Position numbers and translations under genes: made by a program
Notes under the pieces: generated by a model
What the model saw: the letters and a program-made list of their open reading frames with translations, nothing else
Told to the model about the DNA's origin: nothing
The model's database searches: none
Shown here: positions 9,617 to 59,754 of the stretch, piece by piece
How the letters are laid out: each line of letters starts with the position of its first letter
Position numbering within the stretch: the stretch's first letter is position 1
Assembly: GCA_035652395.1 (NCBI GenBank)
Contig: DASRDX010000009.1
Coordinates: 355,739-419,738, forward strand
Source of the DNA: Minisyncoccota bacterium
GTDB taxonomy: Bacteria; Patescibacteriota; Minisyncoccia; Phycocordibacterales; CAJBRS01
Direction of reading: 5' to 3'
Length of the DNA stretch: 64,000 nt

Positions 9617-10279
9617 TCAGCTCTTCCCGATCGGGGCGGTGCCGGCGTAGGTGGCGACGACGACGTAGCGATCTTCCTTAGCGCCGAAACTGTTACAGGT
9701 TGAGAGAGTCAAAATGTTTTGTTTGGTTGAGAAGCTGACGTAAGCGTTAGTATCTTTTTCCAATTTCACTGAGGCGACGGTGTAAAAATAAACTCTGTCT
9801 TTAGTAAGAACTTTAATCTGATCTCCTTCTTTTAAATTGTGAATGTTGTTGAAAACTTGATAAGCCTTGTTGTTCACCACTTTGAAACCGGTGGAGTGGC
9901 CGAAGATGAACATGTTGCCATAGCCTGGCAATCCTGATCCGGGATAATGCACCGCTCCTTCCGTGAGTGCGTTATCAAGCGTGGTATTACCAGTGCTCGA
10001 GGGATTAATAACTTGATAATTTAGACCGATGACGTCAGATTGAATGCGAAGCGGCACTTGATCAGTGGGCGGCAAGGGATTTGGATTCTGAGGATTATTT
10101 TCACCGGTGATGCTTTCAATGGAATTCTCGGAAAGCTGGTTTAAGATATTGGGTGTACCTGTTTGTTCTTTTAATTCGGTTGGAATTAGACCAAAAGCAT
10201 AGAGAACGACAAAAGTAACCAAAAAAATTCCCAAAAATAAAAAAGAGAAGGTGGCTTCCGGACGTTTATACCATTTCAT
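9617..10279 (-). CDS. Sortase (transpeptidase), membrane anchored.
   Basis: N-terminal TM helix. His motif MFIFGHSTG. Catalytic TLSTC motif (TLxTC). Downstream conserved Arg in RYVVVATYAG. Confidence 0.8.
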   Translation of the reverse strand: MKWYKRPEATFSFLFLGIFLVTFVVLYAFGLIPTELKEQTGTPNILNQLSENSIESITGENNPQNPNPLPPTDQVPLRIQSDVIGLNYQVINPSSTGNTTLDNALTEGAVHYPGSGLPGYGNMFIFGHSTGFKVVNNKAYQVFNNIHNLKEGDQIKVLTKDRVYFYTVASVKLEKDTNAYVSFSTKQNILTLSTCNSFGAKEDRYVVVATYAGTAPIGKS

Positions 10280-10335: not shown

Positions 10336-11592
10336 ATGGAAAAAGATAAAAACCCTGATAATAAAAGCCCTCGGCAAATTAAGGAAAGTGCCCCTATCAA
10401 TCTCCCAATCGAGGAGGAGAATAAAAACCCTGCCCGAATCGTCTGGCGAGTTTTGATTTTGGGGGTTGTTTTAGTCGTTTTAATTATTCTAAGTATTGGC
10501 ATTATCAAATTGGTGCCGCGAGCCCTTTCTTCTTTGGCTTCGGTAAACGTCTCTATCTCTTCCCTCTTTACTCCTAGCAAAAACGCTTCAAGCACTAATC
10601 AAAATCGACCGGTTGTTACTCCTGCTTCTACTTCAAGCAATCAGAGCGCCACTACTTCCGCTCCATACCCAGTCAATAATGGAGATACCGGTGGCAATTC
10701 TAATTCCGGAAATAATGGTGGAGCCTCATTTAATCAAAATGGTAATCCCGACCTTCAATTGACTATCAGCTCAATCGGAGTACTCGATCGCAACAGTGGA
10801 GCTTTTGTTCCAACCACTAACGTAAACACCAATGATCGAGTGGCTGTTAAGTTTCAGGTAGAAAATGTCGGAGAAGGTCCATCAGGAGCTTGGAATCTTT
10901 CAGCTGCCCTACCGGCAGTTAATCCCGCAGATCAGACTAAAAATCTTTCCAACCAGATTTCTATTCCGGCTGGCATGGCTGTCAGCGGAGAACTTTACTT
11001 TGATTATGTTCAGACCGGTCAGAATCGGGTAGTTCAAATTTCCATCAGCGACAGTCGTTCTGAACTTCGCACCAATAACAACAGCGCCCAAGTGACTATT
11101 AATTCTACGGGAAATAATGGTGAATATTATGGCGGGGGCGTAGTTACTAATGGCCTAGATTTGGCAGTTCAGATTATGGATACTGGCACAGTTGATCGCT
11201 ACAGCGGTCAGTACAATCCTTCTTCTTACATTAATGCTTCTAATCGAGCAGCTGTTCGATTTCGAGTAACTAATCAGGGATCGATTGCAAGCGGTAACTG
11301 GACTTTCAGCGCCACTCTGCCGAATAGTTATAACAACAATAACAACTGCTATTACAATTACGGCGTCTATCAGTGCAACAACAATAATTACAATAACGGC
11401 AATAATAACCTGACTCAAAATGAAGGTTCATTGGCTCCCGGCCAAAGCGTGATCCTAATTGTCGGCTTTGACGGAGTGCAGTACGGCACAAACAATACTG
11501 TTAATATCAATGTTGACCCGTATAATCAGCTGCCGGATGTGAATCGAGGAAATAATTATGCTAGCGCGAATTTGTACGTAAATTCGTATTAA
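10336..11592 (+). CDS. Membrane-anchored extracellular protein with two CARDB-like domains and Asn-rich low-complexity inserts.
   Basis: N-terminal TM helix RVLILGVVLVVLIILSIGII. Two repeats of the pattern DL..I.......RVAVKF.V.N.G...SG.W...A.LP, each ending in ..NNNSAQVTIN / NRGNNYASANLYVN, typical of CARDB domain C-terminal ends. Confidence 0.55.
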   Translation: MEKDKNPDNKSPRQIKESAPINLPIEEENKNPARIVWRVLILGVVLVVLIILSIGIIKLVPRALSSLASVNVSISSLFTPSKNASSTNQNRPVVTPASTSSNQSATTSAPYPVNNGDTGGNSNSGNNGGASFNQNGNPDLQLTISSIGVLDRNSGAFVPTTNVNTNDRVAVKFQVENVGEGPSGAWNLSAALPAVNPADQTKNLSNQISIPAGMAVSGELYFDYVQTGQNRVVQISISDSRSELRTNNNSAQVTINSTGNNGEYYGGGVVTNGLDLAVQIMDTGTVDRYSGQYNPSSYINASNRAAVRFRVTNQGSIASGNWTFSATLPNSYNNNNNCYYNYGVYQCNNNNYNNGNNNLTQNEGSLAPGQSVILIVGFDGVQYGTNNTVNINVDPYNQLPDVNRGNNYASANLYVNSY

Positions 11593-11612
11593 TCTTTAAT
11601 TAATCATTTCAA

Positions 11613-11650
11613 GAAAAAAGGCCGGCCGCTTCGCGGCCGGCCTTTTTTCT
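11613..11650. terminator. Bidirectional intrinsic terminator between the CARDB gene (+) and gyrB (-).
   Basis: aaaaaaggccggccgc-ttc-gcggccggccttttttc. A 10-bp GC stem with A-run and T-run flanks. Confidence 0.65.
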
Positions 11651-11685
11651 TGACCCCTAAGCGAAAACCAAATCTAGTGAAGCGA

Positions 11686-13791
11686 CTATATATCAATATT
11701 AGCCAACTTGGCGTTTGATTGTATAAACGACTTGCGGCTTGGTACATCCGTACCCATTAAAATCTCAATTACTTTATCGGCCGCTTCCGCATCTTCGATA
11801 TTTACCTGCTTCAAAACTCGATTGTTTGGATCCATGGTAGTCTCGCCGAGCTCTTCTGCATTCATCTCTCCAAGACCTTTGTAGCGCTGAATGGCGATCT
11901 TTTTCTTCTTCTCTGCGCCTTTTTCTTTCTTATTTTTTGTTCCTTCCTCTTCTGGCTGCTCGCTTTCAGCTTCCTCTTCCCCTTCTTCACTGGCTCCTTC
12001 CACTGGTTCGGCCACTTCCACTTTCTCCCGAGTCAAGAACTTATCTTTTTCTTCTTCGGTATAAAAATAAAGTAATTCTTTTCCATATTTCACTTTATAA
12101 AGTGGCGGCTGGGCAATGTAAACAAATCCATTTTCAATCAATGGCCGGAAGTAACGATAGAAAAGAGTCAAAATAAGAGTCCGGATGTGGGCTCCGTCAA
12201 CGTCGGCATCAGTGGCAATAATAATTTTGTGATAGCGCAGCTTGGAAATATCGAAGGTGTCCCCGATGGCAGTGCCGATGGCAATCACCAGATTTTTAAT
12301 TTGTTCTGAAGCCAGCATCTTATCGAGGCGAGCGCGTTCAATATTTAGGATCTTGCCGCGAAGCGGCAAGATGGCCTGCGTTCGGCGATCGCGTCCCATC
12401 TTGGCCGTGCCACCGGCCGAATCTCCTTCCACGATAAAGAGTTCTGACTCGCTGGCTTCTTTGGACTGACAGTCGGCTAGCTTTCCCGGCAAAGTCATAC
12501 CCTCAAGGGCACCTTTGCGTAGAATTGAATCTTTGGCGGCTTTGGCGGCTTTGCGAGCCTTTAAAGCCAATAAAGACTTGTTAACAATAGATCTGGCATC
12601 ATCGGGATTCTCTTCCAAGAAGGCGGAAAAAGCCTCCCCGAAAACCGTAGTGACAGCCGATTGAGCTTCCACACTTCCGAGTTTGGCCTTAGTCTGACCT
12701 TCGAATTGAATCTCCCGCAATTTTACAGAGACGACAGCCGTTAATCCCTCCAAAACATCATCACCGGTAAAATTGTCCTCTGATTCCTTAATGATATTAG
12801 CTTTGCGCCCGTAAGTGTTTATAGTTCGAGTCAGAGCGGTTTTAAATCCAGTTAGGTGCGTTCCTCCTTCGGGAGTACTGATGTTGTTGGCAAAACTTAC
12901 TACTCGTGAAGATATGTCATCAACATACTGGAGAGCCACCTCCACCGATTCCACTCCTTCAGCTTTTTTCTCCACATAAAAAATGTTCTTGTGAATTGGC
13001 TTTTGGAGCTGATTGTAGAATTTAATGAGAGAGAGTAATCCTCCTTCAAAGTAAAAAGTTTGTGATGGAGCCTCGATCTCCAGTTCTCTGAAATAAAAGA
13101 CTTTATCGGTGTCTATCTTCTCTTTAACCTCTCTAGCATCAATCATGGAAATGCGCAGACCTTTTACCAAATAGGCTTGTTGCCGCATATGAGAAACGAC
13201 ACGGGAGAAATCAAAATTGATTTCCTTGAAGATTTCCGGATCGGGTTCAAAAGTTACAATAGTTCCCGATTGTTTAGTGCTGCCAATTTTTTTGACGGCC
13301 GCCTTTCGTTTGCCTTTGGAATATTGCTGAACGTAAATTCCCCCCTCTTTGTGAACAATTACCTCGGTGAAGACTGAAAGAGCGTTTACTACTGAAGCGC
13401 CGACTCCGTGTAAACCACCTGAAACTTTGTAGCTACTATTTTCACCACCAAATTTTCCGCCGGCGTGCAAAGTGGTCATGATGGTCTCCAGTGCCGAAAC
13501 TTTAGTTTGTTTGTGCATGTCCACCGGAATACCTCGGCCATTGTCCGCCACTCTCACTCGATTTCCTGGGAGCAGAGCCACTTCAATGTCATTGGCAAAA
13601 CCACCCATAGCTTCGTCTCGAGCATTGTCAAAGATTTCCGTAATTAGATGGTGGAGGCCGTCAGGACCGGTAGTACCAATGTACATTCCCGGACGCTTTC
13701 GAACAGGCTCAAGGCCTTCTAGGACAGTAATGTCGGCGGCTCCGTAGGAGCCGCCTTTTTTCTCTTCTTTTTCAGCTGATTTTTTGGCCAT
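11686..13791 (-). CDS. gyrB: DNA gyrase subunit B, with a roughly 40-aa acidic/Lys-rich insertion near the C-terminus.
   Basis: GHKL ATPase and TOPRIM motifs: LEGLEPVRKRPGMYIGTTG, LHAGGKFGG, LFIVEGDSAGGTAKMGRDR, IATDADVDGAHIRTLILT, IQRYKGLGEMNAEEL. Confidence 0.9.
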   Translation of the reverse strand: MAKKSAEKEEKKGGSYGAADITVLEGLEPVRKRPGMYIGTTGPDGLHHLITEIFDNARDEAMGGFANDIEVALLPGNRVRVADNGRGIPVDMHKQTKVSALETIMTTLHAGGKFGGENSSYKVSGGLHGVGASVVNALSVFTEVIVHKEGGIYVQQYSKGKRKAAVKKIGSTKQSGTIVTFEPDPEIFKEINFDFSRVVSHMRQQAYLVKGLRISMIDAREVKEKIDTDKVFYFRELEIEAPSQTFYFEGGLLSLIKFYNQLQKPIHKNIFYVEKKAEGVESVEVALQYVDDISSRVVSFANNISTPEGGTHLTGFKTALTRTINTYGRKANIIKESEDNFTGDDVLEGLTAVVSVKLREIQFEGQTKAKLGSVEAQSAVTTVFGEAFSAFLEENPDDARSIVNKSLLALKARKAAKAAKDSILRKGALEGMTLPGKLADCQSKEASESELFIVEGDSAGGTAKMGRDRRTQAILPLRGKILNIERARLDKMLASEQIKNLVIAIGTAIGDTFDISKLRYHKIIIATDADVDGAHIRTLILTLFYRYFRPLIENGFVYIAQPPLYKVKYGKELLYFYTEEEKDKFLTREKVEVAEPVEGASEEGEEEAESEQPEEEGTKNKKEKGAEKKKKIAIQRYKGLGEMNAEELGETTMDPNNRVLKQVNIEDAEAADKVIEILMGTDVPSRKSFIQSNAKLANIDI

Positions 13792-20880: not shown

Positions 20881-21078
20881 ATGAAAACTTCTCGGAAAGG
20901 TGGTTTGGTTGGCCTTTTGATGACTTTGATCGTCACTTTAATTATTTTTGGCAGCTTGGAATTCAACCTTTATCACGATCAGCCGGGTGGAGTTAGTGGC
21001 CATTTTTGGAAAGAAATAAAGCAAATACCGAATTACTGGCATTCTCTCGATCTCTCTCCGCTAATATTTGGCAGTTAA
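20881..21078 (+). CDS. Possible small membrane protein. Low confidence.
   Basis: 65-aa ORF with one hydrophobic helix, in the rpsB/prfA intergenic region. No further support. Confidence 0.15.
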
Positions 21079-22037
21079 GAAACTGACTTACCTTTACTCA
21101 AGGCTTCCACGATCGGATCCAGACCTCCGGCAAAAATTTTTTCAATATTGTGCCAGTTTTCTTTAATGCGATGGTCGGTGACGCGATCCTGCAAGATATT
21201 ATAGGTGCGGATTTTTTCAGACCGATCAGCCGTACCGATCTGATCTGAACGTTCTTTGGCAAATTTTTTAAACTCTTCCTCTTCCTTCATCTGCTCGAGC
21301 TTAGCGGTGAGAATCTGCATAGCTTTTTCTCGATTAGCCTGCTGGCTGCGCTCGGCCGTCGCTTTTACATCAATGCCGGTTGGTTTGTGAATAAGTCTGA
21401 CCGCCGTTTCCACTTTGTTAACATTCTGTCCGCCTTTGCCACCAGCGCGTGAGAATTCCATTTCAATGTCGGTCGGGTTAATGACGATCTTAGTTTTTTT
21501 GCGCATCGGTAGAATGGCCACTGAAGCGGTTGAGGTATGAACTCGTCCCATCTTTTCCGTCTCCGGTACGCGTTGAATGCGATGGACTCCAGTCTCATAA
21601 CGAAGTTTCTTGTAAACGTCTTGGCCACGAATTTCAAAGGCTGCTTCTTTGAAGCCGCCGAGGGCGGCCGTCGACTCGCTGATCATACGACTCGACCAGC
21701 CCGAGGCGGCGGCATATTTCTGATACATCTCCGCGAGCTCCTCCGCAAAAAGAGCCGCTTCTTCCCCACCGGCGCCAGCGCGTACTTCTAAGATAATCTC
21801 GTTTGGGAATTCTTCTTCCGCTTCTTCCGCTTTCATAATATTTTCAATTTGATCTAGAACGGCCTTCTTCTGAATCTCCAGATTTTTTAGTTCTTCTTTG
21901 GCCAATTGAGCCATGCCGGCATCTCCTTCGGCCATTTTCTTAATTTCCCCTTCCTCCTTTTCCAGACGCTCAAATTCACCGGCTAAAAAGCCGGTTTTAT
22001 GGTTCTTTTTCAATTCCTCCAGTTTTTCTCTTTCCAT
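21075..22037 (-). CDS. prfA: Peptide chain release factor 1. The start is corrected to the internal ATG.
   Basis: GGQ motif [14 protein letters not shown]. PxT-type tripeptide [14 protein letters not shown]. The ORF-track N-terminal extension would run through the upstream terminator hairpin, so the Met at [11 protein letters not shown] is used. Confidence 0.8.
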
Positions 22038-22046
22038 ATTGTTTAA

Positions 22047-22076
22047 CAAAAGTGACGCGCCAAGCGCGTCACTTTT
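22047..22076 (-). terminator. Intrinsic terminator of rpmE, located in the prfA 5' leader.
   Basis: aaaagtgacgcgc-caa-gcgcgtcactttt, a perfect 13-bp stem. Confidence 0.55.
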
Positions 22077-22182
22077 GTCATCCTCGCAATGCGGGGATCC
22101 AGTCATTGATCCTGGACAACGCTTGAGCGCTTGCTGTTAACGATACCTGTTTTTCCCGTCCTTACGGGAATGACAGGCTTAG

Positions 22183-22437
22183 TTATTTCTTGCTTTTAGT
22201 TGCCTTGGCAGTCTTTTTGGAATCCGTCTTGGTCTTAGCTCCGCTCTGTCGGGCCTTGAATCTTTCCACGCGGCCGGCTGAGTCAAGAACTTTCTCGTTG
22301 CCGGTATAAAGCGGATGACAAGCGGCACAGATCTCCACTTCCATTTTCTCTTTAGTTGATCCAAGAGTATAAACCACCCCGCAGGCGCAGGTAATAGTGG
22401 CGTTCGGAAAATATTGTGGGTGAATGTCAGCTTTCAT
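22183..22437 (-). CDS. rpmE: 50S ribosomal protein L31 (Zn-ribbon form).
   Basis: MKADIHPQY...CACGVVY...CAACHPLYTG. Confidence 0.9.
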   Translation of the reverse strand: MKADIHPQYFPNATITCACGVVYTLGSTKEKMEVEICAACHPLYTGNEKVLDSAGRVERFKARQSGAKTKTDSKKTAKATKSKK

Positions 22438-22482: not shown

Positions 22483-23859
22483 TTAGCTGCTGGCTAAAAT
22501 ATCTATATTTGACTGAATACTCTGAACTTTGGCCATTACTTGTGTCCCGTAAGAGCAGGAGGAGCCGCCGCTGCCATAATATTTACAGGCTGCCCGAATT
22601 TCGGCGCTATAACTTCCGCCAACCGCTCCGAGATCCGACAAATAAAGGGCAGAAGCCATAAAAGCATCTTGAGGATTCCAAGGATCCGCCACATTCTTGC
22701 CGACGGCCGCTGCGATCCTAGCCTGATTTAATTTCCAAGTTGAAGCGATAAATTGAGCCGGCCCCATAGCTCCGCCATAGCCGGAGTTGCCGATTGGGCA
22801 GGAAACTTTCGTGTGATAAGGATCCCTCCCTACGGCTGCTGTAATTTCCAAAAATGGCGCCACATCTCGATCAGGTTTCATTAAATTGCTGACTGTAGCT
22901 CCCGTAGAAATCTTTGTTCCCTGTCCCGTTGAATTAAGCAAATAACAGGCACCGACATTTGCTCCGAGGTTACTTTCTTGAGTGATTATGGCTAAAAGAA
23001 ATGCTGGATCGACTCCGGTAGCTTTTTGAGCTGCTTGAGCATAAATTAAAGCGTCACCGAATTTAATAGCCGGTACGTCTCGCAGGACAAAGAGCTGGTT
23101 TCTGATTTTGGCCGCTTGAGCCTGTTTGGCCGTAAGAACACTTTGATAATTTTGCTGCTCTGACTTATTTAAATTAAGCAATTGCTGTTTTTGGGTCTCT
23201 GCTACTTTGATCTTATTCTGCTCGGCTTGAATATCGGCGCGGGTGTCTACTTCTTGATCCTTCTTCTGGCTAAGGACCTGCTGTTGTTGTTCGTTTTGAT
23301 TTTTGTCCGCTTCTACTTGATCAACGTGTTGTTTCAAAGCAGAATTGAGAGTTGAAAGAGTGTCCATATCTAGAAGGAAACTGGAAAGATCCTGACGACT
23401 TAACATGGCTTCGGCCAGCGAATATGAATCGAGCTGATTAAGCTGACGAATAACATTAGCTAAAGACTGCTGCTCGGCGCTGATGTGCTGATTTAAATTA
23501 TCAATCACCTGCGTCTTGATAGTGATATCGTGACCGAGTTGATTAATGGCAATGGTGTGAGCCTGAATTTTTAATTGAGCCTGTTTGATTTGGGCATTTA
23601 AAGAGGCGATGTCGCTTGAGATACTGCGACCTTGGGCTTTAGTTTGGTCTAAAATCTTTTGCTGGGCGGCAATTTCAGATTCAATTTGAGCAAGCTGGGC
23701 TTCCAGAGCCGCTCGCTGCTCCGGTGTTAAATTAGGGTTAACGGCCTGCCCTGAATCGCTTTGGGCAGAGACTTGCCAATAAAAAGGAGAAAAGGAAACG
23801 GCTAAGAGAAGGACTAAAGCAATTAAAATTTGGAAAAAACTTTTAAAAATTTTTAACAT
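22483..23859 (-). CDS. Secreted or membrane-anchored coiled-coil protein with a C-terminal lysozyme-like (SLT-type lytic transglycosylase) domain. Architecture is PcsB/EnvC-like.
   Basis: Start set at MLKIFKSFFQILIALVLLL (signal/TM), because the longer ORF overlaps rplY by 100 nt. The coiled coil is about 250 aa and Gln/Ala/Leu-rich. The C-terminus has AIITQESNLG (catalytic Glu-Ser), GAMGPAQF and SALYLSDLG. Confidence 0.6.
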   Translation of the reverse strand: MLKIFKSFFQILIALVLLLAVSFSPFYWQVSAQSDSGQAVNPNLTPEQRAALEAQLAQIESEIAAQQKILDQTKAQGRSISSDIASLNAQIKQAQLKIQAHTIAINQLGHDITIKTQVIDNLNQHISAEQQSLANVIRQLNQLDSYSLAEAMLSRQDLSSFLLDMDTLSTLNSALKQHVDQVEADKNQNEQQQQVLSQKKDQEVDTRADIQAEQNKIKVAETQKQQLLNLNKSEQQNYQSVLTAKQAQAAKIRNQLFVLRDVPAIKFGDALIYAQAAQKATGVDPAFLLAIITQESNLGANVGACYLLNSTGQGTKISTGATVSNLMKPDRDVAPFLEITAAVGRDPYHTKVSCPIGNSGYGGAMGPAQFIASTWKLNQARIAAAVGKNVADPWNPQDAFMASALYLSDLGAVGGSYSAEIRAACKYYGSGGSSCSYGTQVMAKVQSIQSNIDILASS

Positions 23860-23893
23860 GAGAATGATCGAGCGAGGATTAACGAGCCGGCCA

Positions 23894-24565
23894 TTATTTG
23901 GCCGGCTCGCTTCCGGCGCCGGCGTCGCCGGCGCCCTCTTCCCCTTCTTCTTCTTTCTTACCTTTCTGTTCCACTTCAATAGATTCAAGATCAATTGGAG
24001 CGACCACTTCTTCTATTTCTTCCTTCACTTCCGAAACCAAGGCTACTACTTCTTCCGCATCCGTAACTAATTCCACTCCTTGCGGCAATTTCACATCTTT
24101 AGCCAGAACTCTCGATTCGAAATTAACCAATCCCGTAACATCTACTTCAATTTGGTGCGGTAGATCTTTCGGCATCGCCTCAATTTCCAATTCGTGCAAA
24201 ACTTTCACCAGCGTTCCCCCGAGTTCCTTAACCGCCGGAGGCAAGCCATTAAATTCAATCGGTACGCCCACTTTTACTTTCTTCCCCTTTTCCAAAATAT
24301 AAAAATCAGCATGTCGGACTCGGCCGGTTACCGGATCCAGATCAATGTCGTGAATTAGAGCTTCATGTTCGTCTCCCGCCCCTTTTAGAACCAAAACGGA
24401 TGATTCCCCAGCCTCTTTCCAAGCCTTCAGAAAGTCCGCTTCTTTGACGACAATTGGGGTTGATTCAGACTTACGGCCATAAAAAACGGCTGGAATCTTG
24501 CCGTTTTGGCGAATTTCAGCCAGTTTCGCCTTCTTTTCCCTTTTTTCCACATTTAAAGTCAGCAT
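23894..24565 (-). CDS. rplY: 50S ribosomal protein L25, Ctc form, with an acidic/Gly-rich C-terminal tail.
   Basis: MLTLNVEKREKKAKLAEIRQNGKIPAVFYG. Two-domain Ctc-type length of 223 aa. Confidence 0.8.
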   Translation of the reverse strand: MLTLNVEKREKKAKLAEIRQNGKIPAVFYGRKSESTPIVVKEADFLKAWKEAGESSVLVLKGAGDEHEALIHDIDLDPVTGRVRHADFYILEKGKKVKVGVPIEFNGLPPAVKELGGTLVKVLHELEIEAMPKDLPHQIEVDVTGLVNFESRVLAKDVKLPQGVELVTDAEEVVALVSEVKEEIEEVVAPIDLESIEVEQKGKKEEEGEEGAGDAGAGSEPAK

Positions 24566-24603: not shown

Positions 24604-25086
24604 TTATTTAGGAGCTGAAAGGCAAACGATAGTAGAGTAAGGCGAAGCTCCTCTATATTGAGTATTGGCTGGATTCAACTGATAGGGCGTATATAAAGCA
24701 TAAACTATATAGGGAGCTAGGTCAGAATTATTAACAGCTTGGCTACCACAACTATATTTAAAAGACAAATAACCAGAATAAGTAGGGATTATCATTCTAT
24801 ATAAGGGGGAAGTGGGCACGCTAGATATGTAAGCGGGTACAAAGTTAGGCAAACTAACACTATCAATATTGCTCGTACTTACTGTGGGATAGGTTCCGTT
24901 ATCTGAATAATATTGTTCAACAGCATTTCTCAATTGAACCAAGTTCTGCAATACTTGCGAATCGCTAGTCTTGGCTCGGGCCGTTACAATATTAGTGAGA
25001 ATTACCGTTACCAAAAGACCAATGATCGAAAGTACTACCATTAGTTCAATTAGGGTAAAGCCTCTTTTCTGGTCACGGTTTTTCAT
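24604..25086 (-). CDS. Type IV pilin or pseudopilin (prepilin).
   Basis: Class III signal KRGFTLIELMVVLSIIGLL, with Gly-1, Phe+1 and Glu+5. Confidence 0.8.
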   Translation of the reverse strand: MKNRDQKRGFTLIELMVVLSIIGLLVTVILTNIVTARAKTSDSQVLQNLVQLRNAVEQYYSDNGTYPTVSTSNIDSVSLPNFVPAYISSVPTSPLYRMIIPTYSGYLSFKYSCGSQAVNNSDLAPYIVYALYTPYQLNPANTQYRGASPYSTIVCLSAPK

Positions 25087-25093
25087 CTAGATA

Positions 25094-25402
25094 TTATGGG
25101 CCTCTTAACTCCGGCGGTAATGTTTGTATTTCCTGAGGAGTCAACGGCCGACCGGAAGTCTTATGGGAGGTTGTTGAATGAATTACTAAATAAACGGTTA
25201 ATAAAAAGAGGATCCCAGCTATACTCAAAATAAAATGATTCGCGCCAGCTTCGGTCTGAACCCATCTCTTGCTAATGAGCCAATCAACCATGAAGGATTT
25301 TTTTCTTGGTAGATAAGAACGATTGAAAACCGGCCGATTAGTGCTTGATTCTTCAAATTCAACCTCTTCGTTCATATTTCTGATTATACCGGTCGGCCAC
25401 AA
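25094..25402 (-). CDS. Small single-TM protein paired with the pilin. Paralog of 25918..26148.
   Basis: Shares the N-terminal motif EVEFEESSTN (compare DVEFDEVRSTN in the paralog), followed by one TM helix. Confidence 0.45.
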   Translation of the reverse strand: MWPTGIIRNMNEEVEFEESSTNRPVFNRSYLPRKKSFMVDWLISKRWVQTEAGANHFILSIAGILFLLTVYLVIHSTTSHKTSGRPLTPQEIQTLPPELRGP

Positions 25403-25415
25403 CCTAGAATCAATA

Positions 25416-25934
25416 TTAACTGGTCAAATCGTAGACGTTGTCTGTGCCCCCAGGTCCGTTTGAAGCTCCGTTAAAGGTGCCGTTACCAAATGTACCCGCT
25501 GCACAAACCGGAGCGGAGCTGTCACTTCTACAATCTTTATCAGAATTCAATACCGCATTTGGGGCTTCTAACAGAGCACCTAAATGATAGAAGGTCACGG
25601 GTGCGCTTGATGGCAAAACCGCATAGCAGTACCAACCGGCCCCTCCGCAACCTGTCCCAAAAGTTTGATTTGAAGGATCTTTGGGAATAGACCCAATATA
25701 GGTTGGTGCTAGGCTCGATAGGGTTAATGGATAGGACTGATTATTACTCTCGTAATAGAGCTGTAGGGCAGTTCTTAATTGGCGAATATCCGAGATTCGC
25801 TGAGTATCTCGAGCCTTGGCCCGAGCGGTGGCAATATTTGACAGAACAATGGTGCTCAGAAGACCAATAATGGCGATCACTACCAGCAATTCAATTAAGG
25901 TAAAACCTTTTTTAAATTTATTTAGTCGGAGCAT
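25416..25934 (-). CDS. Type IV pilin (prepilin).
   Basis: KKGFTLIELLVVIAIIGLLSTIVL, followed by a Cys-containing C-terminal domain. Confidence 0.8.
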   Translation of the reverse strand: MLRLNKFKKGFTLIELLVVIAIIGLLSTIVLSNIATARAKARDTQRISDIRQLRTALQLYYESNNQSYPLTLSSLAPTYIGSIPKDPSNQTFGTGCGGAGWYCYAVLPSSAPVTFYHLGALLEAPNAVLNSDKDCRSDSSAPVCAAGTFGNGTFNGASNGPGGTDNVYDLTS

Positions 25935-34446: not shown

Positions 34447-37400
34447 TTATGAAGTGGAGCTCCCTGAATCCGTTGGAGGCGCTGGTTCTGATGGAAGCGG
34501 CTCTGGAGCGGGATCAGTGCTTGTTCCGGAGATAGTTGAATTAGGAGAAGTTGAGGCGATGGAATCAGTAGAAGTAGAGCTTATGGTTGACCCATTAGAG
34601 CTTCCAGAAGTGTTGTCTGGCACTACTACGGTATTGTTGTTGGAATCAACAGTAATGACGGTGCCGCTTCCTTGAGTGGTTGAAGTAGCCGTAACGTCCT
34701 GACATTCCCCCGCTACGTTTACCATCGCACCATTTCGAATAACGACGCAATATGGATCACCGGTTACCTGATCGTAAAGAGTGATGCCGTTTGGATGAGA
34801 AGGCGCACCCACTGTAAGCTGCTTGGTAAACAGATGCGAGACATAAGCAATACCGTTTAGCATTTCAGCACCAAAGGATTGGAGCGCCGAAAGAAGATCG
34901 GCTCCGAGACCTGGGCCGCCGCCTCCGGCGGCGGCCCCTCCCCCAATATTCAGACTCTCCAAACTCTTCACTCGCAAGTCGAGCGAAGCGAATGCCGCCG
35001 TAGTCGACGCATTCTTATCATCCACTTTCTGATTTAGTCCTTTTATGGCTTCTACTAAGTATGGCCCTACCTGGGCATAGAGAAGGGATTTATAGCCATT
35101 GGCATCGGTTCGTACCAACTCCGGAATGGTCTTCTCCACATCCTGAGCGATAAAGCCAACTTGCGTAGTGGTCGTATCTCCTTGTCTCCAGTTATAGGTC
35201 ACTCCCTGCAAAGCTAGAACTTTATTCAGAGAATCTGATAGCGGATTAATATTCTGCTTCAATCGCTCATCTGAAGAACATGACCATCCTGTTCCTGCCA
35301 CTACCGTACACTGAGCAGTGCCGGCGCTACCATAAAATCGCGCCACATCTGTTCCTGCAGCAGAAACAGTTAAAGGATACGTTGGAGTGCTCGTCCCAAT
35401 GCCGACGTTACCAGCACCATTGTACACAATAGCGGGAGTAGCAAGTCCATACATACCAAACGATGTATAGTTTGATGTTGAATTTGTTCCTACATAATTA
35501 AAATCAATTGACGCAAGATTATAGTTTGAGGCATCTCTTCCTAATACATAACCGACCGTATTTGAACCTCCTGCTGTAGTCAGTCCGGAATAAAGCATCT
35601 TGGTAATCCAACCATTTGTTGGTCTAGAAGTTGGCTCAACCGATAACGGTGATCCGGGGTTTGTAGTACCGATGCCTACGTTCCCTGTCGCGGTATTCAC
35701 AAACAAGGCCGGCGTCGTTCCAGTGGCTACATTTAAGTTGCCCCAGACATCCAGTTTTTGAGAAGGAGAGGAGGTTCCAATCCCGACGTTGCCTGAAGCG
35801 AGAATGGTCATTCGTGTTAAGGCTCCGGTAGCAAAACTTATACTATTTGTTGGGGAATTACCACTAGTATTGTCCGAAGTAAAAGCTAAACCGACATTAG
35901 AATAAAATTGGGCGGTATTTGGAAAAGAAAATGCCCAATTACTATTAACTAGACCGAAACCTCCGTTCGTCCCATCGGCGCGGACAACTTGTACTCCTGA
36001 AAAGGCACTGGATCCAGTATTAGCATTTCGAATAGTAAGACCGTTTACAAAATTATTATCTGAATACGCAACACTTAGAGGTGTAGAGGGGGTTGTTGTT
36101 CCAATCCCGACATTGCCATTTCCATCAATTCTCATCGCTTCAGTATTGCCTACACCCGTTCGGGAAGTTGAAAAAATGAGTTGGCCAGTTCCCCAATTGC
36201 CATTTCTTGTTCCAGCTTGAGCCGCAATAGAAGCGATTCCTACAGCGTTTCCGGGGAGGTCGCGAGAAGCAAAAACTATTTGGTTAAAATTGTTTGCTGT
36301 CTCATCAAAATTATATAGAGTTAGTGCTGGTATGTTGTTGGCCAGAGTAGTGTTGCTATCTGATTGAAATATTCCTGTCACCGGGGCCCCTATATTACTT
36401 CCGTACCAGTAACCATTTGGTACTGACCCACCAATATTTAAGAAGTTCTGAGGACTATTTGTACCTATTCCCACATTCCCCGTCGCCGTATTCACAAATA
36501 GGGCCGGTGTGGTTCCCGTCGCTACATTCAAGTTCCCCCAGACGTCGAGTTTGGAACCAGGCGTCGTTGTTCCAATTCCCACATTCCCTGAAGATTTTAT
36601 AATCAATGCTTGAGTGCCATTCTGTCCTCCATTATTTGGAATAAATCCAATATCACTAATAGATCCTAATTCCATAATGGAGTTAGCTCGTCCAATGAAA
36701 GAGCCGCCTTCATTATTGAAGTTAGCTATTGTATTAAAATTGGCACCCCCATTTACATCAAGTTTATACTGAGGATTCGTCGTTCCAATCCCGACGTTGC
36801 CACTCGGCAAAATAGTGACTTGTTGATTGAATGTATTATTAGAAGATGCGCCAAGTGTTAGAGGATAATTCTGCATTGAGCCCAATTCAATACGCCCAGC
36901 GCCTGCATTCATGTGCAGCAAGCCGTACTTGGTTGTACCTTGTAAAAGCTCAAGAAAAACATTTTGGCCAGTAGGAGCTCCAAAACTCATTCCGCCGTAC
37001 GAACTTGTTGATTGAACATATAAAAGTGGATTTGAGCCATTGGAAATGGCACCTCCTCCAACACCTGCTACATGGAGATTTGCAGTTGGACTACTCGTCC
37101 CAATCCCGACGTTGCCTGTAAATGTGCTCGTGCCTGTAACTGCAATCGTACCTCCTATAGTGGCATTGCGAAGTAAGTAAAGATCTCGCCATCCCTGACT
37201 TCCTGCAGCGCCGAGGTCTTGACCTCCAGACGGAGTTAATATATTGGCACTAAATAAAATGTTTCCACTATCTGAAGAAATTATTCTTGTAGCACCGTTA
37301 ATTTGAATCATACCGCTCAGTCCACCATTGCCGCTCCGAATGGCTCCACCATTTAATGTTTCAATAGTTCCATCAACAAGTAAATTATTTGTTCCAGGAT

Positions 37401-40254
37401 CACTGACCCCTCCAATATGAACTCCTCCTGCAACAGCGAGTTTAGCTAAAGGCGTGCTTGTCCCAATGCCGACATTGCCCGATGAATCAATTCTCATTCT
37501 TTCCGATCCGTTTGTAAGCAGCCTAATTGGTCCAGACGTTGCATTATTAATCTCTAAGAAATTACCAGCTTGTTGATTGAAGGATATAGATGCTAATCGG
37601 CCAGTTGATGTTAGAAGATCAGCAAAGTTGACCGTATAAGTAGGGTCGGTCGTATAGTAAGTTGTGCCTTGATTAGAACCATTAATCATAATTTGTACAC
37701 CTCCGTTATCGAAGGCGGGGTTGCCGAACCCGTCTGGCCAGTTTAATCGGGTTGTGCCTGTTACTGTAAGTTTTTTTGAAGTGTTTGTTGTTCCAATCCC
37801 GACATTTCCCGCTTGAGTAATGTGAAATAATGACGTACCCGTCGAGGAGGCAATCTCAACTGCGTCCTTCCCCGCCACTGCTTGGAGAGTCAGTGTTGAG
37901 GATTGAGAAGTAGTGCCAAGAGAGAGATTGCGGACAATTAAGTCGCGGAAAGTGCCGGCAGAGCCGTTGTTGATTTCAAAAATCCCGGCAGCATTTCTGG
38001 TTAAACCGATATCAGGTGTTGAGCCAGTACCAAAAACTATTCCCGCCGTAGTCCAGCGAGATGGGGTGTTGTTAAAATTATTGCTACCAAGACCTAAACC
38101 TGCGGAGACTAGAGTTGAGTTGTTACCGGCATCCTTTAAGAGAAGGACGTCATTCCCTCCTATCCCGATATCTAATTCGTGAGTGCCCTGATTCTTGAAA
38201 TAATGTCCTCCATTTATTGGAAAGAGGGTCACCACTCCACTCCCGCTTGGAGCTAAAGTGATATTCTGATTCGTTCCTCCAGCATACATGGTCAAGCCGC
38301 CTGCTCCTCCTGTAATCTGCCCATTGCTCGCCACTATTGATCCGGCAAAAGTGGAAGTGGCGGAAGCATTCGTCGCCACAAAGTTCCCGGCTGTCTCGGT
38401 GCCCGTGGTAGTAGCATTTCCGGAGTTTATGAAGTTAGAAGCGGTGACGTTCCCGGTAAAATATCCGTTACCCACGACTGTTACCTTTTCAAAAGGAGTG
38501 GTGGTGGCAATGCCGAGGTTGCCCGCAACTGAACTATTCCCAGCCCCACTTACAGTTAAAGTGCCGGGCTGAGTAGAGTTGCCACTGTCGTCAATTGCCC
38601 ATTTAATAGCATTTCCTGTTCCCTGAATTTGGAAACCGCCTTGGTTACCAGAACCTGTTCCGCCATAACGGATTCTTGCAATATTGCTTAACCAAGAAAG
38701 ACCTACACTTGCTGATTGATTAGTAGGATTTAAAACTTCAACATCACCGCCAGAGGCTCCAGAGCTTTGGATAATACCATTGTATACATCTAATTTAGAT
38801 CCCGGACTAGTCGTACCGATCCCTACATTGCCATTCGCATCGATTCTCATTCGTTCAGAGCCACTGGAGCCGGTGCCAAAACGCAAAGAATTAGATCTCC
38901 CTTCGATCCGGGCGTTCTCGTTGTTCGTGCTGTAGAAAGTTAGATATTCTCCTGTATTGCCGGCATTGGTGCCCGCATTTTGGAGTCGAAAAATTTCCAC
39001 AGTTGCATTGTCTAAATCATTCTCAACATAGAGCTTAGCGGTTGGATTTGTTGTTCCAATCCCGACATTGCCGGCAAAGGTAGAGTTGGCCGCGCCGTCT
39101 GTAGCCACAAAGTAGGCGGCCACATTAGCACCGGTAGAAGTAGAATTAGTAAAAGTTAAATTAGTAAAGTTGGCATTATTGGCAAAGAAGTTGGAGGAAG
39201 TGGCACTGGTGAAGTTTCCGGACGTACTTGTAATTCTAGTACTAAATAAGTTTGTCCCGGTCGCATTGCCAAAAATAAAATTTGAGACATTGCCGTTGGT
39301 ACCATTTAGATTGGTGGAGAAGAGATTGGTAGAGGTAGCACTAGTGAAGAGATTGTTGGTGCTTGATAGATTGGCTAGGGAGAGATTAGTGCCAGTCGCA
39401 TTGGTGAAGATGAGATTGGTAATGTTAGAACTTGAAGCGTTTAGATTGTTGACGTTCTGAGTGTTGGTGAAGGTGGTGGTGCCAGAGACATTGAAGTTGC
39501 CGTTGACGGTGAGATCGTGATTGACGGTGAGATTTCCCCCAGTGTATAGATTTCCGGCAATGGTTGAAGTAGAAAAGCCGTTAAAGAAATTATTAATTTG
39601 GTTTTGGATATTAGTAATGTCGGAGTTTGAGGGACCGGTCCAAGAGCCGATTGGAGCAGAACCTCCAGAATATGTGATGTAGTTGTTGGTGATCGGTGCC
39701 GGCTGATTTGGCGCCGATCCACTTTGCGCGCCAAAAATTAGAGTGCGCAACTCTTGATCTAGATTTGAAAGCTTTTGGTTAAGTTCTTTTTCCGTGACAC
39801 CAGATTGGATGATGGTAGTTTTTTGCGGATCGACAATAGTGACTGGTTGATTTTTAGAATATGTAGTTACATTTGAGATCGTAGATGGTTGATAATTATT
39901 CTGATTTCCTGTATTTGGCTGAATGACAATCGAGGAGGTAGTGGTTGAGATGGGTGCGGGCTTTTTAAAGAGATCAAAGAAATGTTTCAGGAAATCACTG
40001 ATGGAAGAAAGCACGGAAGCTTCCATGTTAATCCCTTGTTGCCCTAAACCACTGTAGCTATTTGCCACTTGGGTCGGCAAGGTTCCGTAAAGGTGTGCCG
40101 CATCTTTAATGGAATTAATGATGGCAGAGTTCGAATTAAAAAAAGAGGTACTTCCAACAGAAGAGGCCGCCTCTACTTTAGAGACGTTTAGGAATAGGAC
40201 GCTTATTAAGAATAAAGAGCCTAAAACTTTATTAAAAACTGGGTTATGATTCAT
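34447..40254 (-). CDS. Giant secreted surface protein 1 (1935 aa). It has a signal peptide, an N-rich 11-mer tandem-repeat region, many tail-fibre-like GNVGIGTTxP repeats, and a C-terminal peptidase S74-like intramolecular chaperone domain. A conserved Cys-containing module and an S/T-rich tail follow.
   Basis: Signal peptide LGSLFLISVLFLNVSKVEA. Repeats of the type PGSKLDVWGNLNVATGTTPALFVNTATGNVGIGT. S74-like block CSSDERLKQNINPLSDSLNKVLALQGVTYNWRQGD...VGFIAQDVEKTIPELV...LLYAQVGPYLVEAIKGLNQK at about 35030..35280. Confidence 0.8.
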   Translation of the reverse strand: MNHNPVFNKVLGSLFLISVLFLNVSKVEAASSVGSTSFFNSNSAIINSIKDAAHLYGTLPTQVANSYSGLGQQGINMEASVLSSISDFLKHFFDLFKKPAPISTTTSSIVIQPNTGNQNNYQPSTISNVTTYSKNQPVTIVDPQKTTIIQSGVTEKELNQKLSNLDQELRTLIFGAQSGSAPNQPAPITNNYITYSGGSAPIGSWTGPSNSDITNIQNQINNFFNGFSTSTIAGNLYTGGNLTVNHDLTVNGNFNVSGTTTFTNTQNVNNLNASSSNITNLIFTNATGTNLSLANLSSTNNLFTSATSTNLFSTNLNGTNGNVSNFIFGNATGTNLFSTRITSTSGNFTSATSSNFFANNANFTNLTFTNSTSTGANVAAYFVATDGAANSTFAGNVGIGTTNPTAKLYVENDLDNATVEIFRLQNAGTNAGNTGEYLTFYSTNNENARIEGRSNSLRFGTGSSGSERMRIDANGNVGIGTTSPGSKLDVYNGIIQSSGASGGDVEVLNPTNQSASVGLSWLSNIARIRYGGTGSGNQGGFQIQGTGNAIKWAIDDSGNSTQPGTLTVSGAGNSSVAGNLGIATTTPFEKVTVVGNGYFTGNVTASNFINSGNATTTGTETAGNFVATNASATSTFAGSIVASNGQITGGAGGLTMYAGGTNQNITLAPSGSGVVTLFPINGGHYFKNQGTHELDIGIGGNDVLLLKDAGNNSTLVSAGLGLGSNNFNNTPSRWTTAGIVFGTGSTPDIGLTRNAAGIFEINNGSAGTFRDLIVRNLSLGTTSQSSTLTLQAVAGKDAVEIASSTGTSLFHITQAGNVGIGTTNTSKKLTVTGTTRLNWPDGFGNPAFDNGGVQIMINGSNQGTTYYTTDPTYTVNFADLLTSTGRLASISFNQQAGNFLEINNATSGPIRLLTNGSERMRIDSSGNVGIGTSTPLAKLAVAGGVHIGGVSDPGTNNLLVDGTIETLNGGAIRSGNGGLSGMIQINGATRIISSDSGNILFSANILTPSGGQDLGAAGSQGWRDLYLLRNATIGGTIAVTGTSTFTGNVGIGTSSPTANLHVAGVGGGAISNGSNPLLYVQSTSSYGGMSFGAPTGQNVFLELLQGTTKYGLLHMNAGAGRIELGSMQNYPLTLGASSNNTFNQQVTILPSGNVGIGTTNPQYKLDVNGGANFNTIANFNNEGGSFIGRANSIMELGSISDIGFIPNNGGQNGTQALIIKSSGNVGIGTTTPGSKLDVWGNLNVATGTTPALFVNTATGNVGIGTNSPQNFLNIGGSVPNGYWYGSNIGAPVTGIFQSDSNTTLANNIPALTLYNFDETANNFNQIVFASRDLPGNAVGIASIAAQAGTRNGNWGTGQLIFSTSRTGVGNTEAMRIDGNGNVGIGTTTPSTPLSVAYSDNNFVNGLTIRNANTGSSAFSGVQVVRADGTNGGFGLVNSNWAFSFPNTAQFYSNVGLAFTSDNTSGNSPTNSISFATGALTRMTILASGNVGIGTSSPSQKLDVWGNLNVATGTTPALFVNTATGNVGIGTTNPGSPLSVEPTSRPTNGWITKMLYSGLTTAGGSNTVGYVLGRDASNYNLASIDFNYVGTNSTSNYTSFGMYGLATPAIVYNGAGNVGIGTSTPTYPLTVSAAGTDVARFYGSAGTAQCTVVAGTGWSCSSDERLKQNINPLSDSLNKVLALQGVTYNWRQGDTTTTQVGFIAQDVEKTIPELVRTDANGYKSLLYAQVGPYLVEAIKGLNQKVDDKNASTTAAFASLDLRVKSLESLNIGGGAAAGGGGPGLGADLLSALQSFGAEMLNGIAYVSHLFTKQLTVGAPSHPNGITLYDQVTGDPYCVVIRNGAMVNVAGECQDVTATSTTQGSGTVITVDSNNNTVVVPDNTSGSSNGSTISSTSTDSIASTSPNSTISGTSTDPAPEPLPSEPAPPTDSGSSTS
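39130..39480 (-). repeat. Intragenic tandem repeats of about 33 bp (11-aa) in giant protein 1 (pattern xTNATGTNLFS).
   Basis: Visible DNA periodicity (gagattggt... variants) encoding NLIFTNATGTNLSLANLSSTNNLFTSATSTNLFSTNLNGTN... Confidence 0.5.
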
Positions 40255-46799: not shown

Positions 46800-46873
46800 T
46801 TCAGAATCCCTCTGAAATATATCCCCCTCGTTCAATTTAGAGTCCTGAACTAGACTTTTATCCCTCGTCTAAA

Positions 46874-48434: not shown

Positions 48435-48435
48435 A

Positions 48436-49194
48436 CTATAGAGCCACGGCAGTAACCGTTACTGAAGCCTGATAAGTACCGGCTTCCTGAATCTTATTGG
48501 AACCGATTCCTACCTGATACTTAACGGAAGTGGTGGCCCCGTTTGGCTGATTATTGGTAGTGCCGAGAGCAATAGTTTTGGGACTCGTAGACATACCGTC
48601 CCAACATCGGTCCGTCGTATCCGTAGAACCAGTGTTGCAGGCACTACCATTATTGCGATAGCGGGAGATTACGTCTGAACCATGAGGGGAAAAACCAAAA
48701 GTGGAGGAAGCTGCTCCAACACTAAAAAGAAAATCAGGGGCAGCGCCGGCGGGGGCGTAATCCGTAATTGAAGCGCTGGTGCTGGTAGATTTTAGGGCGG
48801 GAGTAGTAGATGCCACGATAGAAAGTTGATAGCCTGCCGGATCATCTGTAACCACTATCCAATCCGATTGGGCTTGCACGGATCCACCGGAAATGCCGCT
48901 AATGTTCGGTAAGGAAATATTAACTGTATTAGATACAGAAATGTAGTTAGTCTGTAAGGCCTGATAGCCGGCGCTTAGACGATAGTTGGTACTTGAGCTG
49001 AAACCGGTTCCTACCTCCCCCACCGTACTTTCTTGTCTATAGTTACTACTGGTGCTAAAACCACCTCCAATATTCAAACTATCAGACTGAATCTTGTATG
49101 AGCTGCTCTGCATGACGGCGGCAAAAATAGAAAGCGGTATCAGAAGTATGGAAATTAAAATGACCAGTTTTAAAGTCTTGAAAATTTTTAGCAT
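48436..49194 (-). CDS. WxL-domain-like secreted surface protein (paralog A).
   Basis: Signal peptide. Motif DWIVVTDDPAGYQLS resembles the first WxL motif (TWxLxDAP). Paralogous to 50202..50873 over the C-terminal 150 aa. Confidence 0.4.
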   Translation of the reverse strand: MLKIFKTLKLVILISILLIPLSIFAAVMQSSSYKIQSDSLNIGGGFSTSSNYRQESTVGEVGTGFSSSTNYRLSAGYQALQTNYISVSNTVNISLPNISGISGGSVQAQSDWIVVTDDPAGYQLSIVASTTPALKSTSTSASITDYAPAGAAPDFLFSVGAASSTFGFSPHGSDVISRYRNNGSACNTGSTDTTDRCWDGMSTSPKTIALGTTNNQPNGATTSVKYQVGIGSNKIQEAGTYQASVTVTAVAL

Positions 49195-49230
49195 GAGATT
49201 TTTAGAGGCGCCGCGAAGCGGCGCCTCTTC

Positions 49231-50199: not shown

Positions 50200-50201
50200 A
50201 A

Positions 50202-57371: not shown

Positions 57372-57376
57372 GAAAG

Positions 57377-59728: not shown

Positions 59729-59754
59729 AGATTTAGATAAAAATTATTTAAACT

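Follow-up and report, generated by a model that had tools for sequence, protein, structure and literature searches.

The window analysed here is a stretch of 64,000 nucleotides from a Minisyncoccota bacterium (contig DASRDX010000009.1, positions 355,739 to 419,738). It encodes a 458-residue protein in which a coiled-coil hairpin resembling that of the division factor EnvC leads directly into a predicted lytic transglycosylase domain. We give about an even chance to the view that this protein is an exported effector, directed at the cell's own wall, coupled to the FtsEX complex and acting through glycan-cleaving chemistry; its link to FtsEX is one that we infer. The gene and the parts of its product are arranged as follows, with residue numbers in parentheses:

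22483-23859, (-) strand: transglycosylase gene, 458 residues, with its ATG at 23859 and its stop codon at 22483-22485
23764-23859, (-) strand: probable Sec signal peptide (residues 1-32), with the n-region MLKIFK, a hydrophobic core and a VSA|Q cleavage-type site
23428-23724, (-) strand: helix I, the outward arm of the hairpin (residues 46-144)
23389-23427, (-) strand: hairpin turn (residues 145-157), containing a six-residue helix at 148-153
23092-23388, (-) strand: helix II, the return arm of the hairpin (residues 158-256)
23062-23091, (-) strand: conserved linker FxLRDxxxI between coil and catalytic domain (residues 257-266)
22555-23061, (-) strand: lysozyme-fold lytic transglycosylase domain of the family-3 (MltB/Slt35/SltB) type (residues 267-435)
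22975-22977, (-) strand: codon, verified, of Glu295, the predicted catalytic acid in the motif LAIxxQES
22486-22554, (-) strand: conserved amphipathic C-terminal helix YGxxVMxxAxxxQxxIDxL (residues 436-458)

The open reading frame (ORF) at 22483-23859 encodes a conserved protein and is not a chance ORF, as its composition, its length and all the tests described below show. If translation began at a TTG at 23994, the reading frame would run about 100 bp into rplY; the ATG is also where an identical protein in the database (P0001) begins. The protein has four parts: a probable signal peptide, a coiled-coil hairpin, a lysozyme-fold domain, and a conserved C-terminal helix. The full-length AlphaFold2 (AF2) model, made from a 50-sequence alignment, has a mean pLDDT (predicted local distance difference test score) of 84. 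In it the coiled coil occupies residues 46-256, or about 210 residues, and is rich in glutamine (18.5%), alanine (11.8%) and leucine (11.4%). An earlier description, made from the letters of the window and hereafter called the sequence-only reading, had the composition right and the length, at about 250 residues, too long. Two antiparallel helices of about 99 residues each would form a hairpin with an estimated length of about 150 Å. Block-mean pLDDT values along helix I are mostly 83-91, with 79 near the tip, and they drop to 57-62 in the turn. The most conserved 47-residue span of the coil begins at residue 210, and this best-conserved region contains the final 20 or so residues of helix II (YQxxL...AAxIRxxLF). 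The linker that follows is non-helical in the model (pLDDT 68 for the block 251-260). In an alignment of 50 close relatives (A1), three of its residues (F257, L259, I265) never vary and two more (R260, D261) hardly do.

The coil resembles EnvC at the level of sequence. A single-sequence search of the PDB with the 458-residue protein yields nothing useful, and the matches come from profiles, built either on A1 or on 120 diverse representatives at 50% clustering (A3). The A1 profile finds Escherichia coli EnvC at an E-value of 5.4e-6. With the A3 profile the same protein is matched at 3.2e-13 (52.5 bits) in a gapless alignment of 211 residues, in which profile positions 44-254 face EnvC residues 35-245. 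The A3 profile also matches the EnvC proteins of Vibrio cholerae (4.8e-8) and Pseudomonas aeruginosa (4.4e-6) across the hairpin. The best generic coiled coil is the P22 needle gp26, with 1.9e-7 over about 100 residues, while myosin and tropomyosin score 5e-5 or worse. Among these matches, the one to E. coli EnvC alone far exceeds the coiled-coil background, with an E-value six orders of magnitude below that of the best generic coiled coil. HMMER scores are known to overrate coiled coils, and the EnvC match was therefore subjected to a shuffle control. A profile restricted to the coiled coil gives the real EnvC segment 56.5 bits and its reversed sequence 4.7. When EnvC is shuffled in 7-residue blocks (n=1000), the mean is -1.5 and the maximum 25.6; in 21-residue blocks (n=1000), these values are 11.9 and 47.2. 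None of 3000 shuffles (1000 each for full, 7-residue-block and 21-residue-block shuffling) reaches the real score.

The likeness extends to the position of the hairpin turn. In the crystal structure of EnvC, the long helix I ends at about residue 128, the long helix II starts at about 141, and a six-residue helix lies in the linker between them (PMC7668044). Since EnvC residue x corresponds to x+16 here, 128 and 141 become 144 and 157, and the boundaries predicted independently in the AF2 model are 144 and 158. The model likewise places a six-residue helix in the linker, and its turn falls within one residue of that of EnvC. Helix II aligns with EnvC helix II and with the first 24 or so residues of the EnvC restraining arm, and EnvC is the top Foldseek match for the whole model. 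The PcsB/EnvC-like coiled coil proposed in the sequence-only reading is thereby supported, both by the predicted two-helix hairpin (46-144 and 158-256) and by a sequence-level match to EnvC that no shuffle equals. Homology between this coil and the FtsX-binding domain of EnvC is likely, if not proven.

The C-terminal domain has a lysozyme-like fold in place of the CHAP or LytM domains found in the PcsB/EnvC design, just as the sequence-only reading had claimed. The three catalytic-domain motifs quoted there (ITQESNLG, GAMGPAQF, SALYLSDLG) are all present in the translation, as IITQESNLG at residues 290-298, GAMGPAQF at 363-370 and SALYLSDLG at 403-411. Searches with hidden Markov models (HMMs) of lysozyme-like families give two matches above the Pfam cut-offs. 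SLT_2 (PF13406) scores 28.3 bits for a cut-off of 24.3 and covers residues 275-411 (model positions 78-200 of 292). SLT (PF01464) scores 22.0 bits for a cut-off of 21.3 and covers just 28 residues around the glutamate (273-300; model positions 2-29 of 117). In five scanned relatives SLT_2 scores 31-43 bits, and a precomputed PF13406 annotation is found on nearly all of the relatives listed. When the C-terminal domain is compared as a profile, LAIIQQESNLG lines up with IIGVETFFG of P. aeruginosa SltB1 and with the corresponding motif of E. coli Slt35, and in the same comparison GYGGAMGPAQFIPST is aligned with YAGAMGLPQFMPSS. Glu295 thus faces the glutamate of the GVET motif in both SltB1 and Slt35. 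We take this glutamate, Glu162 in Slt35, to be the catalytic residue of family 3. Glu295 is invariant in the 50 close sequences and in the 120 diverse representatives, some of which are as little as 29% identical to the 458-residue protein, so that the catalytic glutamate expected in aligned homologues is there.

Modeled alone, the domain adopts a lysozyme fold with a pLDDT of 93.5 and a predicted template-modelling score (pTM) of 0.89; the pTM of the full-length model is 0.51, and its inter-domain geometry is uncertain. Structure comparison of the domain places it nearest to the solved family-3 enzymes, with every family-1 structure ranking lower. The family-1 (SLT) resemblance suggested from the motifs does not hold up, as the domain shows the motif pattern and the fold of family 3 and the SLT match is confined to its 28 residues. 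Nor does the domain belong to an MltB orthologue: its SLT_2 match is limited to the core of that model, and its scores fall far short of the curated equivalogs of MltB (TIGR02282, 20.3 bits for a cut-off of 281.4; NF008029, 14.6 for 449). Judged on its sequence, the domain is a minimal and divergent member of the family-3 superfamily, presumably a pared-down lytic transglycosylase, although lysozyme-type hydrolysis is also compatible with it. The C-terminal segment that follows is helical in both models (436-457 in the full-length one); two of its residues, Y437 and V441, show no variation in A1 and hardly any in A3.

The N-terminus points to export. The AF2 model has a hydrophobic helix at residues 3-21 followed by disorder, with pLDDT below 50 at 23-40, and the n-region MLKIFK carries a lysine. 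The signal-peptide call on the 458-residue protein comes from a regular-expression heuristic and a reading of the sequence. Applied to 120 diverse relatives, the same heuristic finds a hydrophobic N-terminal run in 100, of which 99 have a small-x-small site behind the run, and no later membrane-like segment in any. The signal peptide of a related SLT_2 protein, encoded behind rplY in Candidatus Microsyncoccus PMX.50, is called by SignalP in the published supplement (PMC9763046). Of the signal peptide or transmembrane anchor proposed in the sequence-only reading, the hydrophobic, signal-like N-terminus with its VSA|Q site is retained; the permanent anchor is not, since the segment reads as a cleavable signal peptide. 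The mature protein is probably soluble and extracytoplasmic, as are EnvC, PcsB, and CwlO. One divergent member, P0256 (681 residues, on a 6.3-kb Logan contig), begins not with the signal peptide but with about 270 residues that resemble a polytopic membrane protein. By eye this part looks like Lgt, the prolipoprotein diacylglyceryl transferase, and the fusion may be a gene-calling or assembly artefact. If the fusion is real, it would tether the coiled-coil enzyme to the membrane.

The family is large. A word-indexed search returns at least 3787 clusters at 90% identity, with lengths of about 430-480 residues and full-length coverage, and an exhaustive search of 50%-identity representatives returns 309 with E-values below 1e-30. 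The clusters come from Candidatus Paceibacterota, Parcubacteria and relatives, and in their source annotations they are called "lytic murein transglycosylase", "MltB" or "CwlO-like protein"; for some members the JGI pipeline gives "peptidoglycan hydrolase CwlO-like protein". A second subfamily, about 29-31% identical and including Harrisonbacteria, adds at least 2246 clusters, almost none of them named. Precomputed Pfam labels on relatives, such as PF24161, were set aside, as our own scan gave generic coiled-coil noise only. In a collection with one genome per species, at least 587 genome stretches encode a member, and all 80 of the loci kept from them belong to Patescibacteria-type metagenome-assembled genomes (MAGs) or to unclassified bacteria.

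The gene sits among genes of the translation machinery:

23894-24565, (-) strand: rplY (ribosomal protein L25/Ctc), 34 bp upstream of the transglycosylase gene
22183-22437, (-) strand: rpmE, directly downstream
21075-22106, (-) strand: prfA, downstream, after rpmE

These three genes, which the sequence-only reading had named, were assigned independently by tblastn correspondence with Pfam-labelled genes in related loci, and the assignments agree. The start of the prfA ORF is probably a later methionine (MEREKLEEL) and not its first ATG. Of 76 loci with enough sequence, 71 have rplY immediately upstream in the same orientation, and rpmE or prfA lies downstream in 52 of 62. In the divergent subfamily rplY is again upstream and the downstream genes differ. 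In L087, positions 11532-12269 encode a 245-residue protein with a weak HTH_25 match (possibly RodZ-like), followed by recA; in L084, two ORFs without Pfam match at 11451-12773 precede recA. Neither rpmE nor prfA comes next downstream in these two loci, and the link to rplY is the only universal one. Such fixed synteny suggests a core, growth-linked housekeeping gene, and on its account we reject a phage or mobile-element origin.

The transglycosylase gene is probably co-transcribed with rplY, upstream of which there is a promoter-like site (24601-24574); no terminator-like site is found between the two genes. The 45-bp gap between the transglycosylase stop codon and rpmE holds a second promoter-like sequence, TTGACT-16-TATAAT (22474-22447, (-) strand, 11 of 12 matches), which suggests that rpmE and prfA are under a promoter of their own, in a scan whose overall count is not above the shuffled expectation. 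The stop codon of rplY lies within an inverted repeat with a perfect 9-bp stem, GAGCCGGCC AAATAAT GGCCGGCTC (about 23885-23915, (-) strand), a little over 30 bp ahead of the start of the transglycosylase gene. The repeat is not followed by a T-run, and it may be a transcript-processing or translational-coupling element.

A model can be proposed from these parts. The signal-bearing protein is predicted to be exported and would act as a housekeeping autolysin on the cell's own peptidoglycan. The tip of its hairpin would dock between the extracellular domains of an FtsX dimer, and as FtsE binds and hydrolyses ATP at the division site, the conformation of the hairpin would change. This change would free or position the transglycosylase domain, which may otherwise be autoinhibited. 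The domain would cut bonds between N-acetylmuramic acid and N-acetylglucosamine in the septal or growing wall, and the daughter cells would separate. The protein would be the Paceibacteria counterpart of PcsB, CwlO, and RipC, cutting glycan strands instead of peptide or amide bonds, and it would need no separate amidase, unlike EnvC. A self-directed housekeeping role is indicated by the large family of constant length (about 450 residues), by the synteny with rplY, and by retention of the gene in a parasite of archaea. We are more tentative about the full proposal, which we hold at somewhat less than an even chance: that an EnvC-type coil drives a transglycosylase directly, that ATP-powered strand cutting, in place of amidase or endopeptidase activity, is the main route of septal splitting in these ultrasmall cells, and that the rplY operon makes production of the enzyme track growth.

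Evidence on FtsEX itself comes from gene order and from a related genome. Pfam scans of 30 window ORFs together with motif scans for ATP-binding cassette (ABC) ATPases find no ftsE or ftsX in the 64-kb window, in which ABC systems are limited to a BPD-type importer (56658-58219) and an exporter of the ABC-2 type (58937-60507). When 88 related loci are scanned for motifs, no ftsEX turns up within 10 kb of the gene, and none occurs in the loci of the divergent subfamily. The single FtsE-like exception among the 88 is a MacB-type pair in L049, a Taylorbacteria MAG. An ABC3 permease of 429 residues (MacB_PCD plus an FtsX-like domain) and an ATPase are encoded there at 11376-13375, between the transglycosylase gene and rpmE and 10 bp after the transglycosylase stop codon. 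MacB-type pumps are mechanotransmission relatives of FtsEX. The pair is probably incidental, being found once in 88 loci and at a spot that holds unrelated inserts in other genomes. To our knowledge, pcsB, cwlO and envC do not lie beside ftsEX in their model organisms either, and missing synteny is therefore no evidence against coupling.

The gene order prfB-ftsE-ftsX is typical of Gram-positive bacteria and offers a way to locate FtsEX in further Paceibacteria genomes. It is also that of genes 00441-00443 in Candidatus Microsyncoccus archaeolyticus PMX.50 (Paceibacteria), whose FtsX carries the Pfam domain FtsX_ECD, according to the portion of the supplement available to us (PMC9763046). About 18 genes farther on, the same portion lists rplY (00461), an SLT_2 protein with a signal peptide (00462, mislabelled "Smc" by Prokka) and prfA (00464), the arrangement seen in the window (PMC9763046). 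In that portion of the table, the only M23 peptidases are of the LysM type, and no NlpC/P60, CHAP or Amidase_3 protein appears (PMC9763046). On these entries, which include no other coiled-coil hydrolase, the SLT_2 protein is the sole visible EnvC-like candidate for a partner of FtsEX. The closest UniRef entries for two of the PMX.50 genes are labelled as fragments of "Mesotoga sp. SC_NapDC", probably through patescibacterial contamination of a Mesotoga assembly. FtsEX has also been reported in Minisyncoccus, Saccharimonadia, Patescibacterium, and Absconditicoccaceae.

Several observations weigh against coupling to FtsEX and favor the strongest of the other explanations, namely that the protein is a self-directed transglycosylase working without FtsEX. 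Its coil would then be an autoinhibitory or spacer module, controlled by another membrane partner, by proteolysis or not at all, and the likeness to EnvC would be partly or wholly convergent. Besides the lack of ftsEX synteny in the window and in the 88 related loci, neither ftsE nor ftsX has a KEGG assignment in Yanofskyibacterium PMX_810_sub, a MAG of the Paceibacteria that does encode an SLT_2 protein; the protein there has 930 residues and is not beside rplY, and MAGs can be incomplete. The segment aligned with the two FtsX-binding sites of EnvC, at the tip of the hairpin, is not significantly better conserved than the remaining coil (p 0.15-0.28). When 70 single family members are searched, 46 match SMC models and 34 the EnvC model, and convergence among coiled coils can raise their HMM scores. 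A precedent also exists: the catalytic cleft of RipA is closed off by its coil until SteB (Cg1604) releases it, independently of FtsEX (PMC9897464).

On the other side, the match to EnvC covers the full hairpin in register, at a score beyond that of any generic coiled coil or shuffle, and the two turns coincide. Even among the 70 single members, the best E-value favors EnvC (3.3e-12 for EnvC, 1.3e-8 for SMC). No SteA- or SteB-like neighbor is conserved, rplY alone being so, and PMX.50, which does bear FtsEX, lists no other coiled-coil hydrolase among the entries available to us. A transglycosylase independent of FtsEX is, on this balance, possible and rather unlikely.

The autolysin reading has also to be set against a host-directed one, in which an episymbiont would use the enzyme as a lysin, breaching the wall of its host to release nutrients. 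Patescibacterial lytic transglycosylases in general have been proposed as weapons against the host, the predicted secretion fits such a role, and the window also encodes pilins and giant surface proteins. A near-universal gene of constant length behind rplY in 71 of 76 loci nevertheless has the pattern of a core gene, and not that of a fast-evolving factor for host interaction. In the entries available for it, the same synteny is kept in Candidatus Microsyncoccus, a parasite of methanogenic archaea, and such hosts are not known to have murein. We know of no role for an EnvC-type coiled coil in attack enzymes, and consider a host-directed lysin very improbable. We rate about as low the idea that the transglycosylase makes room in the wall for type IV pili or the competence machinery, as VirB1, EtgA and FlgJ do elsewhere: two pilin-like genes do lie just upstream of rplY in the window and pilin homologues occur within a few kb in some related loci, but only 9 of 67 loci have a pilin-like ORF in the 3 kb upstream, compared with 71 of 76 for rplY, no pilus assembly gene is conserved next to the transglycosylase gene, and the machine-associated transglycosylases known to us have no EnvC-like hairpin.

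The window contains other features of the cell surface, most of them farther from the transglycosylase gene:

24604-25086, (-) strand: pilin-like gene with a GFTLIEL-type N-terminal motif, confirmed by a Pfam N_methyl match
25094-25402: small membrane ORF between the two pilin-like genes
25416-25934, (-) strand: second pilin-like gene, with the same type of N-terminal motif
9617-10279, (-) strand: sortase gene
34447-40254, (-) strand: giant ORF of 1935 residues, with a Peptidase_S74 domain (residues 1661-1715, E 3.6e-17), which in endosialidases and tail-spike proteins is the intramolecular chaperone
40500-46835, (-) strand: adjacent giant ORF of about 2100 residues, without Pfam match
47079-50873, (-) strand: cluster of four genes for signal-peptide proteins, with weak WxL-interacting and fibronectin-III matches
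61896-63983, (-) strand: ORF at the right edge of the window, SecA-like by eye, which seems to begin in mid-protein

The two giant ORFs look like surface-fibre proteins of the kind reported on patescibacterial cells. The sortase and the four-gene cluster point to surface anchoring in the Gram-positive style. The ORF at 61896-63983 may be a split or frameshifted gene, or it may have an alternative start.

Comparison with known systems places the protein between several families. EnvC (E. coli, V. cholerae, and P. aeruginosa; PDB 6TPI, 8HD0, 8TZK, and 8I6O) is likewise exported, with an N-terminal hairpin of the same length, a six-residue helix in the turn, and a wall-related C-terminal domain after the coil. 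However, EnvC's LytM domain is degenerate and inactive and activates separate amidases (AmiA/B), and its groove is filled by the helix of a kinked restraining arm. Here a 10-residue linker runs from the coil straight into a transglycosylase predicted to be active. An orthologue of EnvC is ruled out, as the curated EnvC model gives 17.3 bits for a cut-off of 270. Because the curated orthologue models of EnvC and MltB both fail, the protein is filed under neither name.

The resemblance in design is to PcsB of Streptococcus pneumoniae, CwlO of Bacillus subtilis, and RipC of Mycobacterium tuberculosis, which also combine a signal peptide, a coiled-coil hairpin and an active C-terminal domain and work without a separate amidase. 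They cut peptide stems with a catalytic domain of the CHAP or NlpC/P60 type, a cysteine peptidase or an amidase, whereas the protein described here is predicted to be a glutamate-dependent cleaver of glycan strands. The suggestion of a PcsB-like design with a different catalytic chemistry is upheld in this sense. In searches by sequence, neither PcsB nor RipC is represented in the 60 best PDB matches of the family profile, and the PcsB model is touched by only 2 of 70 members. RipA (Cg1735) of the Corynebacteriales, which is regulated by SteAB and not by FtsEX, has a coiled-coil N-terminus and a C-terminal wall hydrolase for cell separation, and the likeness to it is one of structure, at the level of the hairpin. 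Its catalytic domain is NlpC/P60, with an active site that the coil blocks directly until SteB frees it, and RipA too is absent from the 60 best PDB matches. With MltB/Slt35 and SltB1-3 the protein shares the lysozyme-like core, the E-S/T...G motif, and the GAMG-x-x-QF(I/M)PS-T/S motif. It differs from MltB/Slt35 in that its domain has about 170 residues, without the extra domains of Slt35, and in having no lipobox. The solved family-3 enzymes have no N-terminal coiled coil of the EnvC type.

Reviews of FtsEX from 2024 and 2025 list as partners only EnvC, an amidase activator, and PcsB, CwlO and RipC, whose domains (LytM, CHAP, and NlpC/P60) all concern the peptide part of the wall. The literature that we searched contains no description of an EnvC-type coil paired with a transglycosylase, nor does it link FtsEX to any partner in Patescibacteria. 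The pieces are already known as labels from automated pipelines ("lytic murein transglycosylase", "CwlO-like"). What appears to be new is an EnvC-type FtsX-binding module joined to a glycan-cleaving domain across a whole bacterial radiation, which is undescribed in that literature. If this is true, the mechanotransmission module of FtsEX is agnostic to the chemistry that it drives, and a likely enzyme of daughter-cell separation can be named for one of the largest radiations of uncultured bacteria, whose division machinery is essentially unstudied. The "lytic transglycosylases" of patescibacterial genomes would then have to be reread, from weapons against a host to core enzymes directed at the self. 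The proposal that the protein is an FtsEX effector is open to test with recombinant proteins and with cultured Minisyncoccus. Taken part by part, the protein most resembles PcsB, CwlO and RipC in function, EnvC in the sequence of its coil, and MltB and SltB in its catalytic domain.

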